From contig CAZGCP010000001.1 in NCBI GenBank assembly GCA_964524525.1, positions 1 to 33,580 on the forward strand: DNA of 33,580 bases, read 5' to 3'. The stretch is from Candidatus Woesearchaeota archaeon. GTDB taxonomy: Archaea > Nanobdellota > Nanobdellia > Pacearchaeales > GW2011-AR1. Shown here in pieces: positions 1,692 to 27,889 of this stretch. The notes under the pieces are model-generated. The model was not told where the DNA came from. It made no database searches and worked only from the letters and a program-made list of their open reading frames with translations. Positions within the stretch are counted from its first letter, which is position 1. Each line of letters begins with the position of its first letter. Both the position numbers and the translations under genes were made by a program.

Positions 1692-3742
1692 TTTGAATTT
1701 TTATTGGAAGGTTCCTTTTCCTCTTTATTTTTTCCTTGATTTTTCTTTTTCAAAGATTTTTTCTTTTTACTTTTTTTAGTAGCAATAGAAATTATTTTTA
1801 CAATTATTAAGATTATTGCTATTATTAATAAAACATTAAGAATTGCTTCCCAATTCCAATCTTTGATTCCTTTAGATTTTTTAACTTCAATTGGAAGTTT
1901 AAATTCAGCAACTACTATTCCATCTTTTCCAATATTCCAATTAATAATTTGTTTTCCTGAAACATTTTCTTTTGATTGAAGAGTGATTTCAACATTTTCT
2001 GATTCTCCAACATCAAGAGTTATTTGTGAAGGGTTTATTGAAATTGATTCTGTCCAATTAGAATTAATATATCCTAACTCATATGTTACTGGTTCATCTT
2101 CGGGATTTGTTATTGTTACATTCAAAACAAACTCATCTCCTGATTTCCTACCTTTTTTAAGACTTGCATCAATCATGTTTGATTTTTTAACTTCATCATA
2201 GAAGTGTGCACACCATAATCCAGTAACATCAACATTTGAAGTATAAATTGCTTTTTCATCATCTACTCCTCCTTCATAAATATCTTTTTCTTCCATATCT
2301 TTATCATCATATACTGTAAATGTAATTGGGTATATTTTTTCTTCAACACCTTCAGGTATTCTTACTAATACATCAAAATTAGAACTTCCTAAGGGATTTA
2401 TTCCACTGTCAAATTCAACAACTTCACTAATTCCTAATTCCTCATTTTCTACTTTTACAAAAATCTCATCTTCTGGAATTTTATCATCTCCAATATTCCA
2501 AATTTTAGGTCTGAATTGTATTTCTGAATCACAAGGAACAAATACATCTAAATCTAAATTCTTTATAACTAAATATTCTTTTAATTTAACATTTAAATCT
2601 TTTAAGGCTGAAGTAGCAGTTTCTTCTCCATCAACATTTTCTTCTTCTGCCTTGTCTCCTTCTAACTCTCCTTTAGCAGAAATCAAAAAGGAATAATCAT
2701 CATTTGTTTCAGATAATTTTTTTGGATCTAATGTGAAAACAATTTCCAAATCCATATCTTTTCCTTTTTCTAAATCAAAATCATCTTCATTAATTTCCAT
2801 ATATCCCTCATCTAAAACACATTTATCATCTTTAATATCATATAAACATATTTCAATTTCAATATCTTCAACATCATAATTTCCTTTGTTGTCAAGTGAA
2901 GTTTCAATTTTTATTTTATCGAAAGGGTAGATTTTTGTTTCTTCTCCTAATCCTTCTTCTACTGAAAAAGTTAATTCGTCAAATACTAATTCACCAAGAT
3001 TTGAAATATCTCCTGCATATCCTTTATTATAAATAACCTCTCCTCCAGCATAATCTCCATTAGAAGAGTTTGCATTCACAATTATTGAATTTTCTCCATA
3101 TTTTAAATCATCAAAATCTGAATCAAGTTTCAAAGTAATTTCTTTTTCTTCTCCTGCAGTTAAATCAAAATCATTTTCAGAAAAATTAACATCAAATTCT
3201 CCTGAATAAGTTAAATTAATTTCAGTTAAACCTGTGTTTCCTTCATTCTTTACTGTGATTGATGTGGTTTTTCTAGTAAAAGTTGAATCTGATACTGATA
3301 AAGAAGATGATTCTGGAACACTTACATCTAAGTAAAAAACAGGATTATTATTTAAAGGTCTTAAATCGCTTTGGTTTGTAGGATTTCTTTCATAACCATC
3401 AAAAGTTATTTCTAAATTATATGAATCTGAAGGTTTATGTTTTGGAACACTTACTTCAAGGCTTATTACTCCAATAGTTCCGTTTTCTATTGAATTGAAA
3501 TTTTTTATTTCAACATTTTCCTCAGAAAAAGGGCCATCTAAAACATTTATTGAAGTAGAAAGATTATATAAATCCCAATTTGCATCTGCTTCAACTTCAA
3601 TATTTATAATTTCAGAAGTTCCGTGATTAATATTTTCCATAGCAGAACTAGATTTTAAAGTTATAGCTGCACTAACAAAACTCATAACTAAAAGTAATAA
3701 AAAAATACTTGCTATTCCTAATGTTAATTTTTTTGATATCAT
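1688..3742 (-). CDS. Secreted, C-terminally anchored surface protein, paralog A (S-layer/adhesin-like)
   Basis: 684 aa. Signal peptide MISKKLTLGIASIFLLLLVMSFVSAA. Acidic Asn/Asp/Glu-rich beta-type domains. C-terminus is SKGIKDWNWEA + TM (ILNVLLIIAIILIIVKIISIA) + Lys-rich tail. Collinear with 3801-5843. Confidence 0.85.
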   Translation of the reverse strand: MISKKLTLGIASIFLLLLVMSFVSAAITLKSSSAMENINHGTSEIINIEVEADANWDLYNLSTSINVLDGPFSEENVEIKNFNSIENGTIGVISLEVSVPKHKPSDSYNLEITFDGYERNPTNQSDLRPLNNNPVFYLDVSVPESSSLSVSDSTFTRKTTSITVKNEGNTGLTEINLTYSGEFDVNFSENDFDLTAGEEKEITLKLDSDFDDLKYGENSIIVNANSSNGDYAGGEVIYNKGYAGDISNLGELVFDELTFSVEEGLGEETKIYPFDKIKIETSLDNKGNYDVEDIEIEICLYDIKDDKCVLDEGYMEINEDDFDLEKGKDMDLEIVFTLDPKKLSETNDDYSFLISAKGELEGDKAEEENVDGEETATSALKDLNVKLKEYLVIKNLDLDVFVPCDSEIQFRPKIWNIGDDKIPEDEIFVKVENEELGISEVVEFDSGINPLGSSNFDVLVRIPEGVEEKIYPITFTVYDDKDMEEKDIYEGGVDDEKAIYTSNVDVTGLWCAHFYDEVKKSNMIDASLKKGRKSGDEFVLNVTITNPEDEPVTYELGYINSNWTESISINPSQITLDVGESENVEITLQSKENVSGKQIINWNIGKDGIVVAEFKLPIEVKKSKGIKDWNWEAILNVLLIIAIILIIVKIISIATKKSKKKKSLKKKNQGKNKEEKEPSNKNSK

Positions 3743-3800: not shown

Positions 3801-5843
3801 TTATTTTTTTATTGCTTTTTTAATATTATTATCTTCTTTTTTTAATTTCTTTTTTTTCTTTCCTTGTTTATGTGATGAAACTATAATTCCTGTAACTACT
3901 CCTACAATTGCAATTCCTAAAACAATATTCATAATAATTTTCCAATTCCAACCTTCAAACCAATCTAAAATACCTTTAGATTCTCTAACAGTTACTGGAA
4001 GTTCATAACTTGCAACAGGAATTTTATTTTTACTAATAGTCCACTCTATGACTTGGTCTCCGTAAACATCTTTTTTAGATTCAATTATTAACTGAACAAT
4101 TACTGATTCTTCAGATTCAAGTGTTAATTCAGAAGAACCTAATGAAATTGACTCTGCCCAATCAACAGTAATATTGCTTAAATCATAAGTTACTTTTTTA
4201 TCTTCTGGATTTGTTATTGTTATGTTTATAATAAATTCATCTCCTGATTTTTCTCCAGATTCAAGATCTGCTTTAATCATTTCTAATTTTGTCTGATCAT
4301 TATAAACTGTTTTACACCATAATCCTGAAACATTTATTGTTGAAGTATATGCTGGATGGTAATCTCCCATATCTTGGTAAATATCATCTAAAAAACTTTT
4401 TTCATATTCTTCATAAGGTGTAAAAACAATATCATATTCTCCTTCTTCAATTCCTTTAGGTATTTCAATTAAAACATCAAAACTTGAACTTTCCAAAGAA
4501 TCTAAATCTTCTTTAAATTCAACAATCTTACTAATATTTAAATCCTTATTATAAACTTCAATAAAAATCCCTTCATTTTTCTCTTCATCTCTTTCTATAT
4601 CCTCTTCCATTAAATTCCAGATTTTTGCATTATATTGTATTTCTGAATTACAAGAAATAGATTCCTCAATTTCTAAATTTTCAATATAAACACTTCCTTC
4701 TTTAATTTCAAAATCTAAACTAGCTGAAATACCTGTTTTGTTACCTGCAAATTCTTCCCTATCTCCTTCTTCTAAAGTTCCTTCTGCTTTTATCCATAAA
4801 GTATAATCTCCTTCAAATTCATTTTCTTCTAAAAAATCTTCACTAAGTTTAAAAATTAATTCTAAATCAATTTCATCGCTATCTTCATCTAAATCAAAAT
4901 CATTTTCATTGATTTCCATTTCATCTAAAGTTGCTATTTCATCTCCTAATTCATCAAAAATAGATGCCTCTATTTCAATATCTTCTATTTCATAATCATC
5001 TTTATCTTCAAGAGCTAATGTAAATTCTGTTCTTACTTTATCTAAAGGATAAAACTCTGCATCTTTGGCATCCCCATATCCTTCTACATATTTAAAATCA
5101 AAATCTTCTATTTCTAAATTATCATTTCTTTGTTCTTCTGTGAAATCTCTAAAAAGATTCAATGTTCCTGTGTTATGAGTTCCAGAAGAATTAGCTGTTA
5201 TAGTTATATCATTATCTCCATATTTTAAATCGCTAACATCTGAAGTAAACATTACTGTAACTTCCTTACTTTCTCCAGGAATTAAACTAAAATCATTTTC
5301 AGAAAAATTAATCCAGTTCTTTGAAGAATTAAGATTTATTGAAGTTAGATCTAAATTTCCTTGATTTTTTATTGTTATATTTTTTTTGTTTTCTCTTATT
5401 ACATCAAATTCTGGAGAAGAAACTGAAATATCTTTTGAATCTTTAATAGTTACTGAAAAAGGTAATGAAGTTGTAGTAGATTCTCTTTCTCCTCTAACTC
5501 CAATATTTCCTTTTATAACTCCTGTTTGATATTTATTAAAGGAAACTGTAGCTTGATAATCCTCTGTTATTTCTGTTCCTGAACCATTGCCTATTGTATT
5601 TTTATTAAAACTTATTTGTAATCCTTCTTGTGAAGAAGTAAAATCTGAATAACTCCAATTTAAATCCCCCTCAACTCCCCCATTTGTTAAATTAAATTTT
5701 ATTTTAAAATTTTCATCATGAGAAACTTCTTCAGGAGAATTAATTAAATTAATATCCTCTAAATCAACAGCACTAACAAAACTCATAACTAAAAGTAATA
5801 AAAAAATACTTGCTAATCCAAGAGTCATTATTTTTGATCTCAT
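3801..5843 (-). CDS. Secreted, C-terminally anchored surface protein, paralog B (S-layer/adhesin-like)
   Basis: 680 aa. Signal peptide MRSKIMTLGLASIFLLLLVMSFVSAV. C-terminus is SKGILDWFEGWNWK + TM (IIMNIVLGIAIVGVVTGIIV) + KKKKKLKK tail. Shares blocks with paralog A (NFSENDF, DLKYG.N.I...ANSS, GLWC, GDEF..N.TITNPED). Confidence 0.85.
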   Translation of the reverse strand: MRSKIMTLGLASIFLLLLVMSFVSAVDLEDINLINSPEEVSHDENFKIKFNLTNGGVEGDLNWSYSDFTSSQEGLQISFNKNTIGNGSGTEITEDYQATVSFNKYQTGVIKGNIGVRGERESTTTSLPFSVTIKDSKDISVSSPEFDVIRENKKNITIKNQGNLDLTSINLNSSKNWINFSENDFSLIPGESKEVTVMFTSDVSDLKYGDNDITITANSSGTHNTGTLNLFRDFTEEQRNDNLEIEDFDFKYVEGYGDAKDAEFYPLDKVRTEFTLALEDKDDYEIEDIEIEASIFDELGDEIATLDEMEINENDFDLDEDSDEIDLELIFKLSEDFLEENEFEGDYTLWIKAEGTLEEGDREEFAGNKTGISASLDFEIKEGSVYIENLEIEESISCNSEIQYNAKIWNLMEEDIERDEEKNEGIFIEVYNKDLNISKIVEFKEDLDSLESSSFDVLIEIPKGIEEGEYDIVFTPYEEYEKSFLDDIYQDMGDYHPAYTSTINVSGLWCKTVYNDQTKLEMIKADLESGEKSGDEFIINITITNPEDKKVTYDLSNITVDWAESISLGSSELTLESEESVIVQLIIESKKDVYGDQVIEWTISKNKIPVASYELPVTVRESKGILDWFEGWNWKIIMNIVLGIAIVGVVTGIIVSSHKQGKKKKKLKKEDNNIKKAIKK

Positions 5844-11575: not shown

Positions 11576-11716
11576 TTAATCTGTTTTTATTTTTTTTGTT
11601 TTTGTTCGAGGTTTAAAGAAAATTTTGCTTCCACAATGAGGGCAAACAAATCTTTTATCCAAATCTTTTAAAGTTATTTTCTTTCCACATTTAAAACATT
11701 TATAGTTTGTAGTCAT
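11576..11716 (-). CDS. rpoP: DNA-directed RNA polymerase subunit P (Rpo12/RPABC4)
   Basis: Not in the supplied ORF track (46 aa). My translation is MTTNYKCFKCGKKITLKDLDKRFVCPHCGSKIFFKPRTKTKKIKTD* with a CxxC...CxxC zinc ribbon. Lies between rpl37ae and pfdB. Confidence 0.75.
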   Translation of the reverse strand: MTTNYKCFKCGKKITLKDLDKRFVCPHCGSKIFFKPRTKTKKIKTD

Positions 11717-11717
11717 T

Positions 11718-11936
11718 TTATTGTATATAGTATGTATTTGAAGCAAATTTTTTATTACACTTGGAACACTGCCAAATCCCTTTTGATAATCTTTTAACGC
11801 CCAATTTATCGCAATGAGGGCATTTTTGTTTTACTCTTTGTTTAATTTCAACACTTATTAATTCTGATTTAGGTTTTTTACCATATCTTGGACCAAATCT
11901 ACCTGCTGATTTAATTTTTTTAAGTTTATTAGCCAT
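11718..11936 (-). CDS. rpl37ae: Ribosomal protein eL43 (L37Ae)
   Basis: 72 aa: KKIKSAGRFGPRYGKK...CPHCDK...WQCSKCNKKFA, a zinc-ribbon ribosomal protein. Confidence 0.9.
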   Translation of the reverse strand: MANKLKKIKSAGRFGPRYGKKPKSELISVEIKQRVKQKCPHCDKLGVKRLSKGIWQCSKCNKKFASNTYYIQ

Positions 11937-12053: not shown

Positions 12054-12434
12054 TTAGAAAGATAATTTCTATAAGAATAGTTTTGTAATGGACTTATTTT
12101 GAAAATATAATTTCTGAAAGGTTTGTTTTTGTAGTGTATCTTTTTTTTGAGAAGATTTCTCTAGGTGGAAATTGATTTTATAAAGTATCTTTTTTGAAAA
12201 GATTTCTCTAGGCAGAGGTTGGTTTTGTAGTGTATCTTTTTTGAAAAGATACATGGGGATGCCCGGATTTGACAAAAAATTCTTTTGTAGGAATGAATTT
12301 TTAGTTCGTCCGTCTTTCCAATGTGATATTCGGAAATCCGAACGAAACCGCAAGCACTTCAAATCATTTTTTATAGAAAAGATTTCTCTAGGCAGAGGTT
12401 GGTTTTGTAGTGTATCTTTTTTGAAAAGATACAT
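12054..12434. repeat. Degenerating array of ~45-49-nt units in the tRNA-Pro trailer. The best units carry a perfect 9-bp hairpin.
   Basis: Unit anchors 'gtatc' at 12136, 12185, 12232 and 12412, with weaker units from 12054 and 12091. Consensus is gtatcttttttgaaaagatttctctaggcagaggttggttttgtagt. Hairpin gtatctttt-ttg-aaaagatac at 12232-12252 and 12412-12432. Confidence 0.8.
12196..12272 (-). repeat. Distal copy of a 77-nt direct repeat. Includes an 18-nt copy of the tRNA-Pro 3' end (12255-12272).
   Basis: 12196-12272 is identical to 12376-12452 (offset 180 nt). On the tRNA strand it reads TCAAATCCGGGCATCCCC followed by 59 nt of trailer. Confidence 0.9.
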
Positions 12435-12452
12435 GGGGATGCCCGGATTTGA
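12376..12452 (-). repeat. Proximal copy of the 77-nt direct repeat (tRNA-Pro T-loop/3' acceptor plus trailer)
   Basis: Identical to 12196-12272. The 12435-12452 part belongs to the intact tRNA-Pro. Confidence 0.9.
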
Positions 12453-27612: not shown

Positions 27613-27673
27613 CAATAAAAAAACAAAATTAAATTATATAAATGTTGTCAAAATTTCCTTTATTAATTATCAA

Positions 27674-27706
27674 TTTTTTAAAGAAAACGCCCCCGCCCCG
27701 AATCGA
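27674..27706 (-). repeat. Distal copy of a 33-nt direct repeat. Includes a 19-nt copy of the tRNA-Ser 3' end (27688-27706).
   Basis: 27681-27706 is identical to 27802-27827 (offset 121 nt), and the flanking T-run also matches with one mismatch. On the tRNA strand it reads TCGATTCGGGGCGGGGGCG TTTTCTTTAAAAAA. Confidence 0.9.
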
Positions 27707-27794
27707 GCCTCACTCATTTCATTCGTTCAACTTGTTTCGTATTTCTCTGTGCTTGAAAAGGAAATTCAAAACAAACCTTGTTCGATTTCCCAAA

Positions 27795-27827
27795 TTTTTT
27801 TAAGAAAACGCCCCCGCCCCGAATCGA
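27795..27827 (-). repeat. Proximal copy of the 33-nt direct repeat (tRNA-Ser T-loop/3' acceptor plus trailer)
   Basis: See 27674-27706. The 27809-27827 part belongs to the intact tRNA-Ser. Confidence 0.9.
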
Positions 27828-27889
27828 ACGGGGATGCCCCGGAGGGCCTCGGTCTCAAGCCGAGTGCAATACCATTATGCGACGGAGGC
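27809..27889 (-). tRNA. tRNA-Ser (anticodon UGA), class II with a long variable arm, CCA not encoded
   Basis: Minus strand: GCCTCCG TC GCA TAATGGTAT TGC A CTCGG CTTGAGA CCGAG GCCCTCCGGGGCAT CCCCG TTCGATT CGGGG CGGGGGC G. Acceptor stem has one G-U pair. Discriminator is G. Confidence 0.85.

Follow-up and report, generated by a model that had tools for sequence, protein, structure and literature searches.

A spare tRNA-Ser 3' end in a Woesearchaeota archaeon flanks a small multicopy hairpin element that may spread by copy-and-paste

Spare tRNA 3' ends are routinely read as scars of integrated viruses or plasmids. We analyzed one such spare end, located downstream of a tRNA-Ser gene in a 33,580-nucleotide (nt) stretch of DNA from a Candidatus Woesearchaeota archaeon (the whole stretch is called the window below). 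We found that it borders a short, non-coding hairpin element, here called E, that is present in many copies behind other tRNA genes of the same genus. On balance, we favor the interpretation that the fragment downstream of tRNA-Ser is the right-hand flanking duplication from one insertion of E, and that E moved by homology-primed copy-and-paste. On this interpretation, the spare tRNA 3' ends described here are not scars of virus or plasmid integration. A preliminary description of the locus had suggested site-specific recombination with an attP-bearing element. We replace that integrase reading with one in which a miniature element spreads by copy-and-paste, the T-loop serving as portable homology; we infer this mechanism from the junctions and repeats described below.

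Results

The tRNA-Ser locus

The window is contig C1 of G000, an archaeal metagenome-assembled genome (MAG) of 617 kb in 122 contigs, with a guanine-cytosine (GC) content of 27.9%. The tRNA genes of G000 have no encoded CCA, and many contain introns. G000 was compared with the genomes of two sister species of the same genus, G001 and G002. The tRNA-Ser locus has the following parts:

27809..27889, minus strand: intact tRNA-Ser(UGA) (ARAGORN; Rfam RF00005, 49.1 bits); T-arm CCCCG-TTCGATT-CGGGG; no encoded CCA
27793..27827, minus strand: repeat copy A1, tRNA positions 55-73 plus 16 nt of trailer (TCGATTCGGGGCGGGGGCG TTTTCTTAAAAAAATT) (repeat search; exact 26-nt core)
27780..27787, minus strand: antiT, AATCGAAC, the antisense of the T-loop variant of this tRNA-Ser (GTTCGATT), preceded by an A-run (sequence comparison)
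27707..27792, minus strand: element E, subfamily iii, 86 nt between A1 and A2, with the 3' end ...GTTGAACGAATGAAATGAGTGAGGC (nhmmer, E-value 1.4e-10)
27732..27775, minus strand: P1 hairpin (TTTGTTTTG-AA-TTTCC / loop / GAGAAAT-A-CGAAACAA), the conserved core of the E family (RNAalifold)
27672..27706, minus strand: repeat copy A2, the spare tRNA 3' end (positions 55-73) plus trailer; it abuts the last base of E and is followed by the promoter region of the next gene

We found that the 3' end of tRNA-Ser is repeated downstream as a 35-nt direct repeat (27672-27706 and 27793-27827) at an offset of 121 nt, with 34 of 35 positions identical (97%). Read on the tRNA strand, the repeat runs from T55 of the T-loop (CCCCG-T/TCGATT-CGGGG, the slash marking the boundary) through the 3' T-stem, the 3' acceptor strand and the discriminator G73 into 16 nt of A/T trailer. 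Copy A2 has neither a 5' acceptor strand nor a T-stem partner strand. The window contains exactly two occurrences of the 19-nt tRNA part; there were no matches in 100 dinucleotide-preserving shuffles with 2 mismatches allowed. The preliminary description had reported this duplication (19 nt plus trailer, offset 121 nt), its start in the T-loop, its inclusion of discriminator and trailer and its lack of 5' partner strands, and the repeat alignment bears this out, with the repeat coordinates correct to within 2 nt.

The insert between the two copies was recognized as E by nhmmer and by a covariance model (R1, built from 11 copies), which matched it at 27700-27790 (42.4 bits, E-value 1.3e-6). An ortholog of this E is present at the syntenic tRNA-Ser locus of G002 (contig C5). 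That genome was assembled independently, and the locus has the same architecture.

Spare 3' ends at other tRNA genes

We found that spare 3' ends are common in this genus and that they start at the same place in the tRNA. The last 18 nt of every predicted tRNA were used as a probe against the whole of G000. Spare 3' ends belong to 8 tRNAs in G000 and to at least 24 tRNAs over the three genomes, at least 17 of them in G001 and G002. Exact same-strand downstream copies in G000 were found for tRNA-Pro (+180), Ser (+121), Gln(CUG) (+112), Gln(UUG) (+117), Arg(CCU) (+156), His (+99) and an intron-containing tRNA on contig C39 (+114 and +228); tRNA-Ile(UAU) has a decayed spare copy. At all 24 loci the start of the spare copy falls at T-loop positions 54-56, 17-23 nt short of the 3' end of the tRNA. 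The far end is variable, from the discriminator to 58 nt past it, and on C39 a whole 114-nt unit is repeated twice. The clustering of start points over 24 loci in three species, rather than at tRNA-Ser and tRNA-Pro only, upholds the earlier proposal of a shared mechanism tied to the T-loop.

The second such locus in the window is the following:

12273..12367, minus strand: E copy of subfamily i behind tRNA-Pro (covariance model, 91.2 bits), flanked by an 83-nt repeat (12190-12272 and 12370-12452)

The C39 locus of G000 (2923-3265) is a perfect tandem of two 114-nt units, each consisting of a tRNA 3' end and E, and thus has three 3'-end copies. ARAGORN called its tRNA Ser(UGA) with a 43-nt intron; the call is doubtful.

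The duplications could in principle be artefacts of assembly, through mis-joined repeats or collapsed population variants, and some of the loci do coincide with runs of N (G000 C57; G002 Gly-tcc, Arg-tct and C7). However, the same architecture recurs with different sequences at more than 24 loci in three independent assemblies as well as at the syntenic G002 locus, and a 35-nt repeat is shorter than typical k-mers or reads. We regard this explanation as almost certainly wrong. An apparent duplicate of a tRNA 5' end, at tRNA-Arg(UCU) on C57, was rejected as a scaffolding artefact; it flanks a run of N.

Runs of N fall exactly at tRNA/E loci on G000 C57 (1296-1468, with the same sequence on both sides) and at G002 loci L035, L036 and L054. 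Scaffolding thus fails at these sites, and tRNA counts from such MAGs are likely underestimates. The tRNA/E repeats, in other words, break assemblies at tRNA loci.

A family of small hairpin elements

E is a non-coding element of 75-95 nt (typically ~87 nt), present in approximately 77 copies over the three genomes. Searches with nhmmer and the covariance model gave 20-28 copies in G000, 16 in G001 and 43 in G002, and no convincing match in 38 further genomes from the family and order to which these three belong. Judged from these genome sequences, E is restricted to the genus. From 5' to 3', E consists of an A-run; antiT (the antisense of a T-loop, extended by a few bases of the stem); a small hairpin, GAAC(C)-TTTA-(G)GTT; P1; and a 3' part specific to each subfamily. 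P1 has 8 bp, a GA/GA internal loop, 5 bp and a loop of ~10 nt. In the commonest subfamily, an A/T hairpin with the end TTTTTTG forms the 3' part.

The P1 structure is conserved. Over 76 distinct copies, 97.2% of P1 positions were paired, compared to 42-64% with the partners slid by 1-3 columns; the alignment had been fitted to the model, which favors the structure, yet the margin is large. Eight of the 13 pairs have changed on both sides, and one of the pairs is formed by U.G in 59 of the 76 copies. P1 is more stable on the tRNA strand than on the opposite strand in 64 of 70 copies (mean -11.8 versus -6.9 kcal/mol).

E appears to be undescribed: it has no Rfam family, and we found no description of it in the literature. 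When the Ser and Pro loci were searched against Rfam 15 at a permissive E-value, the tRNA alone reached threshold and all other families scored far below their gathering scores. The GA-rich 5' segment was also considered as a hammerhead ribozyme, a C/D-box or a K-turn; these readings were rejected, as the motif is not kept from copy to copy. A scan of viral contigs with the P1 pattern gave 11 matches, all of them due to chance by the covariance model, leaving no viral contig with E. A scan of genome contigs, with a pattern that proved too loose, likewise gave chance matches.

E has been active recently. A variant with GGCTTTCC is present in 7 copies, all in G002, and for 34 of the 43 copies in G002 the nearest non-tandem relative lies within the same genome. 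One pair of E copies is 98% identical, yet the flanking repeats of the two differ.

E copies follow tRNA genes and carry an antisense T-loop

In the sequence examined, E lies no more than 160 nt downstream of 28 tRNAs on the same strand and of 4 on the opposite strand. Approximately 12 of ~30 predicted tRNAs in G000 carry E, and approximately one third of the tRNA genes found in the three genomes have E behind them; E is also present at some other sites.

We found that antiT corresponds to the T-loop of the adjacent tRNA. Exact antisense T-arm matches of at least 8 nt downstream of a tRNA were found only where an E variant follows. At 23 of 25 clean loci, antiT was the antisense of the local T-loop variant (TTCGAAT, TTCAAAT, TTCAATT, TTCGATT or TTCGACT). 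When variants were shuffled among loci the mean was 8.0, and none of 100,000 shuffles reached 23. The match rarely extends more than 2-5 nt into the T stem, and it appears to be mostly at the level of T-loop class. In folds predicted for E together with the spare copy, antiT pairs with positions 55-63 at 6 of 8 loci, giving a three-way junction that leaves the acceptor 3' strand free. The predicted antiT:A2 helix of the tRNA-Ser copy is only 6-7 bp and is absent from its minimum-energy fold. An origin of antiT by fold-back (snap-back) was rejected, as no priming complementarity was present.

Occupancy differs between species at the same tRNA. E belongs to different subfamilies at tRNA-Pro (i versus v), Arg-CCU (i versus ii) and Ile-UAU (iv, iii and i), and Leu-AAG has E in G002 and none in G000. 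The same tRNA-Ser 3' half was found on 11 metagenome contigs from other lineages, where it is followed by plain T-rich trailers; no pair of filled and empty sites within a species was found.

One metagenome locus (L218, Ga0180007_10005100) has an antisense T-loop segment, GAAATCGAAC, 31 nt after tRNA-Ser, with no recognizable P1. The segment may be a remnant of an element resembling E, outside the genus.

These results bear on the possibility that E has a function within the tRNA transcription unit, as a co-transcribed trailer RNA, as a terminator module, or as an intron in the T-loop whose last exon is duplicated; selection on RNA folding or processing would then maintain antiT and the spare 3' end. 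The tRNA-strand specificity of the structure is consistent with such a role, as are two compensatory pair changes between the tRNA-Ser orthologs of G000 and G002, the lack of a terminator between tRNA and E at several loci, and the T6 at the end of subfamily i. However, the upstream tRNA is complete (49 bits at tRNA-Ser) and splicing is not needed. Inspection of the junctions revealed no bulge-helix-bulge (BHB; 3-nt bulge, 4-bp helix, 3-nt bulge), and an oligo-T run lies inside the would-be intron. The presence and subfamily of E vary between species at the same tRNA, spare copies have decayed (G002 Ser A3 and Arg-tcg) or are absent (G000 Asp, Phe and Met), and E also occurs at non-tRNA sites, opposite to nearby genes. 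We consider a functional role of this kind quite improbable as the explanation.

E is flanked by duplications of its target, also outside tRNA genes

We found that E copies at non-tRNA sites have their own, unique flanking repeats. These are 32 nt (G002 C1), 32, 18 and 11 nt (G002 C5), 12 nt (G000 C40), 12 nt (G001 C30) and ~25 nt (G001 C72). Flanking repeats of at least 12 nt were present at 43 of 73 E copies, compared to 21 of 397 random sites tested with the same geometry; a few of the 43 are neighboring E copies that match each other. The length of the repeats varies from 11 to 77 nt. Because an element cannot bring prior homology to many unique targets, these repeats are target duplications made at insertion, and not att cores. 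At tRNA genes, the start of the repeat in the T-loop keeps the tRNA intact, and the old 3' end is pushed downstream.

This evidence bears most directly on the reading of the repeats as the attL and attR cores of an integrase element whose interior was lost after its entry into the T-loop. Tyrosine-integrase elements that use a T-loop sublocation of tRNA genes as attB were reportedly described by Williams in 2002. As at such sites, the spare copy extends from the T-loop past the discriminator, and each of the three genomes encodes tyrosine recombinases. However, no single integrase specificity explains homologous 75-95-nt inserts at more than 20 tRNAs, and the unique non-tRNA sites have duplications of their own. 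There is no integrase gene nearby, the recombinases are not specific to the genus, and no viral contig with E was found. This reading is largely refuted, and we hold it to be very improbable. The attP-bearing element of the preliminary description has given way to a multicopy hairpin element.

The two ends of E behave differently. The right (T-loop) junction is precise; the left junction is variable and usually lies at an A-run. Non-tRNA copies have a constant 3' end (...TTTTTTG) and a 5' end at or inside P1, with no antiT. Where the right junction falls at tRNA genes varies with the subfamily: at T55 for subfamily i (...TTTTTTG), in 7 of 7 loci; at C56 for subfamilies iii (...GAGGCC), iv (...TTTTCGCA) and v (...GGAGCC); and for subfamily ii (...GTAAGTTTTT) at T54 or before, where the element runs into T54-T55. 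A nuclease making a single cut would give one offset; the subfamily-specific offsets fit better with annealing to a copied T-loop tail than with one fixed cut.

Some copies have carried sequence from their previous site. One non-tRNA copy in G002 (C5) brought along a donor flank (AATTTTCTT), with the junction within 7 nt of microhomology. At tRNA-Ser(GGA) of G002 (C12, ~3930-4130; L052, 433-640), E is followed by TCGATTCTGGGCGCGGGCG, which resembles the 3' end of tRNA-Ser(UGA) and is not local. This foreign tail indicates that E and its tail can be copied as a block.

Arrays of E grow beside the tRNA. The syntenic tRNA-Ser locus of G002 consists of the tRNA, trailer and antiT, a first E (E1), a perfect 55-nt repeat, a second E (E2) and a decayed fragment, and E2 is the ortholog of the E in the window. 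This order indicates that new copies enter beside the tRNA and older ones are pushed away. The tRNA-proximal copy outscored the distal one in 5 of 6 arrays.

Enzyme searches

We searched G000, G001 and G002, which are 81-88% complete, for enzymes that might move E. There are two Xer-like tyrosine recombinases per genome, far from E loci, and genera of the family without E have 0-5. No integrase gene lies in or beside the 86-nt insert behind tRNA-Ser, and the look-up for integrases and circular elements proposed in the preliminary description found none associated with the loci. No match to reverse transcriptase (PF00078) was found in these three genomes, whose incompleteness means that absence is not proven. 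No TnpB scored above the cut-off. One IS200/IS605-type TnpA gene was present in G000 (C108, 1385-1920; 161 amino acids, Y1_Tnp E-value 4.5e-31), inside a truncated transposase-like open reading frame (ORF) and flanked by GC-rich hairpins (CCCCGCAGCTTGCTGCGG) that are unrelated to E. No Y1_Tnp gene was found in G001 or G002, and the C108 gene may be a recent arrival or lie on a mis-binned contig. No transposase-encoding parent of E was found in these searches.

A small conserved ORF lies near tRNA-Pro (window 11624-11725, minus strand), with orthologs on C18 of G001 and C18 of G002. It scored 19.5 bits against the Cas12f1/TnpB zinc ribbon (cut-off, 26.3) and is probably just a zinc ribbon.

The alternative addressed by these searches is that E is a non-autonomous DNA transposon, moved by a dedicated enzyme that recognizes P1 and possibly comes from a virus, a plasmid or unassembled DNA. 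AntiT would act as a base-pairing guide to the target T-loop, and two widely staggered cuts, once filled in, would leave the long duplications. The conserved and covarying hairpin, with its invariant GA/GA loop and U.G pair, would suit such an enzyme. So would the predicted antiT:A2 closing helix, which leaves a free 3' tail at 6 of 8 loci, and the fit of antiT to the local T-loop variant at 23 of 25 loci, including some matches to tRNA-specific stem bases. However, there is no candidate enzyme: TnpA is present only in G000 and with unrelated hairpins, and the Xer-like genes are not E-specific. We know of no transposase that makes duplications of such variable length (11-77 nt). In addition, the junction offset tracks the subfamily of E, and the non-tRNA copies have no antiT. 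We consider a dedicated enzyme unlikely.

Discussion

A model for the movement of E

The copy-and-paste that we favor might proceed as follows. A DNA 3' end would arise within the T-loop on the antisense strand of a tRNA gene, from a nick or a stalled nascent strand. This end would anneal to the T-loop-like tail that follows a resident E, with a read-through transcript or a DNA strand as template. E would be copied, and synthesis would then return to the chromosome downstream, usually at an A-run, so that positions 55-73 and some trailer would be made twice. E could thus hop between tRNA genes by means of the nearly identical 8-11-nt T-loop, and the spare copy would always be local. AntiT would travel with E and would stay matched, at the class level, because hops need the same T-loop variant. 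The model accounts for the precise and subfamily-specific right junction, the local spare copy and the variable repeat length. It also explains the 5'-truncated copies elsewhere, the growth of arrays on the tRNA-proximal side and the fixed orientation.

Several observations weigh against copy-and-paste. No polymerase, reverse transcriptase or nuclease partner was identified in the three genomes at their 81-88% completeness. A few antiT segments match tRNA-specific stem bases (Glu GAGAT, His GGGAG, Gln CAGG), which would not be expected from pure inheritance. The strong conservation of the hairpin, with the U.G pair and the GA/GA loop, gives it the look of a site recognized by a protein, and a dedicated enzyme or an RNA function would account for that better than accidental template switching. 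Finally, the tRNA-Ser E is orthologous in G000 and G002 and is therefore an old insertion, yet A1 and A2 differ at only 1 of 35 positions; later homogenization or re-copying in place must be assumed.

E might be an archaeal element of the type of short interspersed nuclear elements (SINEs), templated by RNA. Transcription from the tRNA promoter would continue into E, and 3' processing of the tRNA would set the RNA free. At the T-loop of a tRNA gene, the tRNA-identical 3' tail of this RNA would pair with the template strand and so prime the copying of the RNA, and the anti-T-loop segment would fold the RNA for the priming step. We give this version a low probability. If it were correct, it would represent a target-primed, retroposition-like pathway in prokaryotes outside group II introns. 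We also considered conservative recombination at the T-loop, through a folded site like that of integron attC or CTX phage. This was rejected, since movement from one tRNA to another would make chimeric tRNAs and since the antiT:T-loop stem amounts to no more than half a site.

Comparison with known systems

E shares features with several kinds of known elements. Integrative elements that target the T-loop leave, like E, an intact tRNA and, after it, a partial copy that extends from within the T-loop over the 3' end, and the gene is restored by element-side sequence. In contrast to those elements, E is ~87 nt long, has no integrase, occurs as one family at more than 20 tRNAs and at unique sites, and has repeats of 11-77 nt.

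SINEs and other target-primed retroposons resemble E in their constant 3' end, 5'-truncated copies, variable duplications and carry-over of the donor 3' flank. SINEs and R2-type elements also resemble E in residing in a highly transcribed RNA gene unit and in expanding in lineage-specific bursts; R2-type elements are described as co-transcribed with the host RNA gene into which they insert (PMC3414825). E differs from SINEs and retroposons in that no reverse transcriptase or autonomous partner was found in the genomes searched, the host is a prokaryote, the element is not derived from a tRNA, and an RNA intermediate is only hypothetical.

Like MITEs (miniature inverted-repeat transposable elements), Rickettsia palindromic elements, repetitive extragenic palindromes (REPs) and bacterial interspersed mosaic elements (BIMEs), and IS200/IS605-derived palindrome-associated transposable elements (PATEs), E is small, non-coding, multicopy, hairpin-forming and mostly intergenic. 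Unlike MITEs, it has no element-defined terminal inverted repeats; the sole inverted pair, antiT and the T-loop, varies with the tRNA and is missing from non-tRNA copies. PATEs and REPs make no duplications and those of MITEs are short and fixed, whereas the duplications of E are long and variable. E also has a strict preference in orientation and position, behind tRNA genes, unlike MITEs and PATEs. The hairpin is strand-specific, as in PATEs and REPs, but E has target duplications and no cognate Y1 transposase with matching hairpins.

Template switching of the kind called fork stalling and template switching (FoSTeS) or microhomology-mediated break-induced replication (MMBIR) likewise has junctions in short shared sequence (for E, the T-loop and A-runs) and variable duplications, and needs no dedicated enzyme. 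Those events are sporadic, whereas E is one structured element copied dozens of times. Dozens of copies with a conserved hairpin indicate that E promotes, or is selected for, its copying. Archaeal BHB introns in the T-loop (the "intron transposition" of Thermoproteales) are similar in being ~90-nt inserts at positions 54-56, with related inserts in different tRNAs. In contrast, E is preceded by a complete tRNA, has no BHB that we could see, contains oligo-T and has copies outside tRNA genes.

Newly described here are the duplications at non-tRNA sites, the subfamily-specific offsets, the class-level antiT match, the foreign tail at tRNA-Ser(GGA) and the arrays in which the tRNA-proximal copy is the young one. 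E seems to exploit the T-loop, a sequence common to all tRNA genes, as portable homology. This targeting logic differs from that of integrases, transposases and CRISPR-guided transposons. If our interpretation is correct, a symbiont genome of 0.6 Mb tolerates dozens of selfish or semi-domesticated copies inside essential, mostly single-copy tRNA units, and it would do so because each insertion rebuilds the end of the gene.

Other observations

An AMP phosphorylase-like gene lies nearby in G000. We looked for contigs encoding the proteins that flank the tRNA-Ser locus and found neither protein.

At tRNA-Val(UAC) (G000 C27, 4714-4797, minus strand; G002 C4, 21852-22031), E lies upstream of the tRNA, between two copies of a segment made up of the 5' leader and positions 1-14. 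GGT microhomology with the D-arm is present at the junction, and the arrangement is the same in both species. E-linked duplications are therefore not confined to 3' ends. Upstream of tRNA-Ser(UGA) in G001 (C65, 135-215; L071), a 50-nt insert that is unrelated to E sits between two copies of the leader and the initial 9 nt of the tRNA (AAAAAAGCCTCCGTC).

A second repeat family is present in many tRNA trailers. It consists of a hairpin, (G)TATCTTTTCAAAAAAGATAC, followed by ACTACAAAAC, and often forms degenerating tandem arrays. Sites include 12054-12434 in the window and, elsewhere in G000, C25 (3190-3400), C39 (3270-3400) and C45 (2532-2582). On C45, one copy of this family is inserted inside the E behind tRNA-Arg(CCU).

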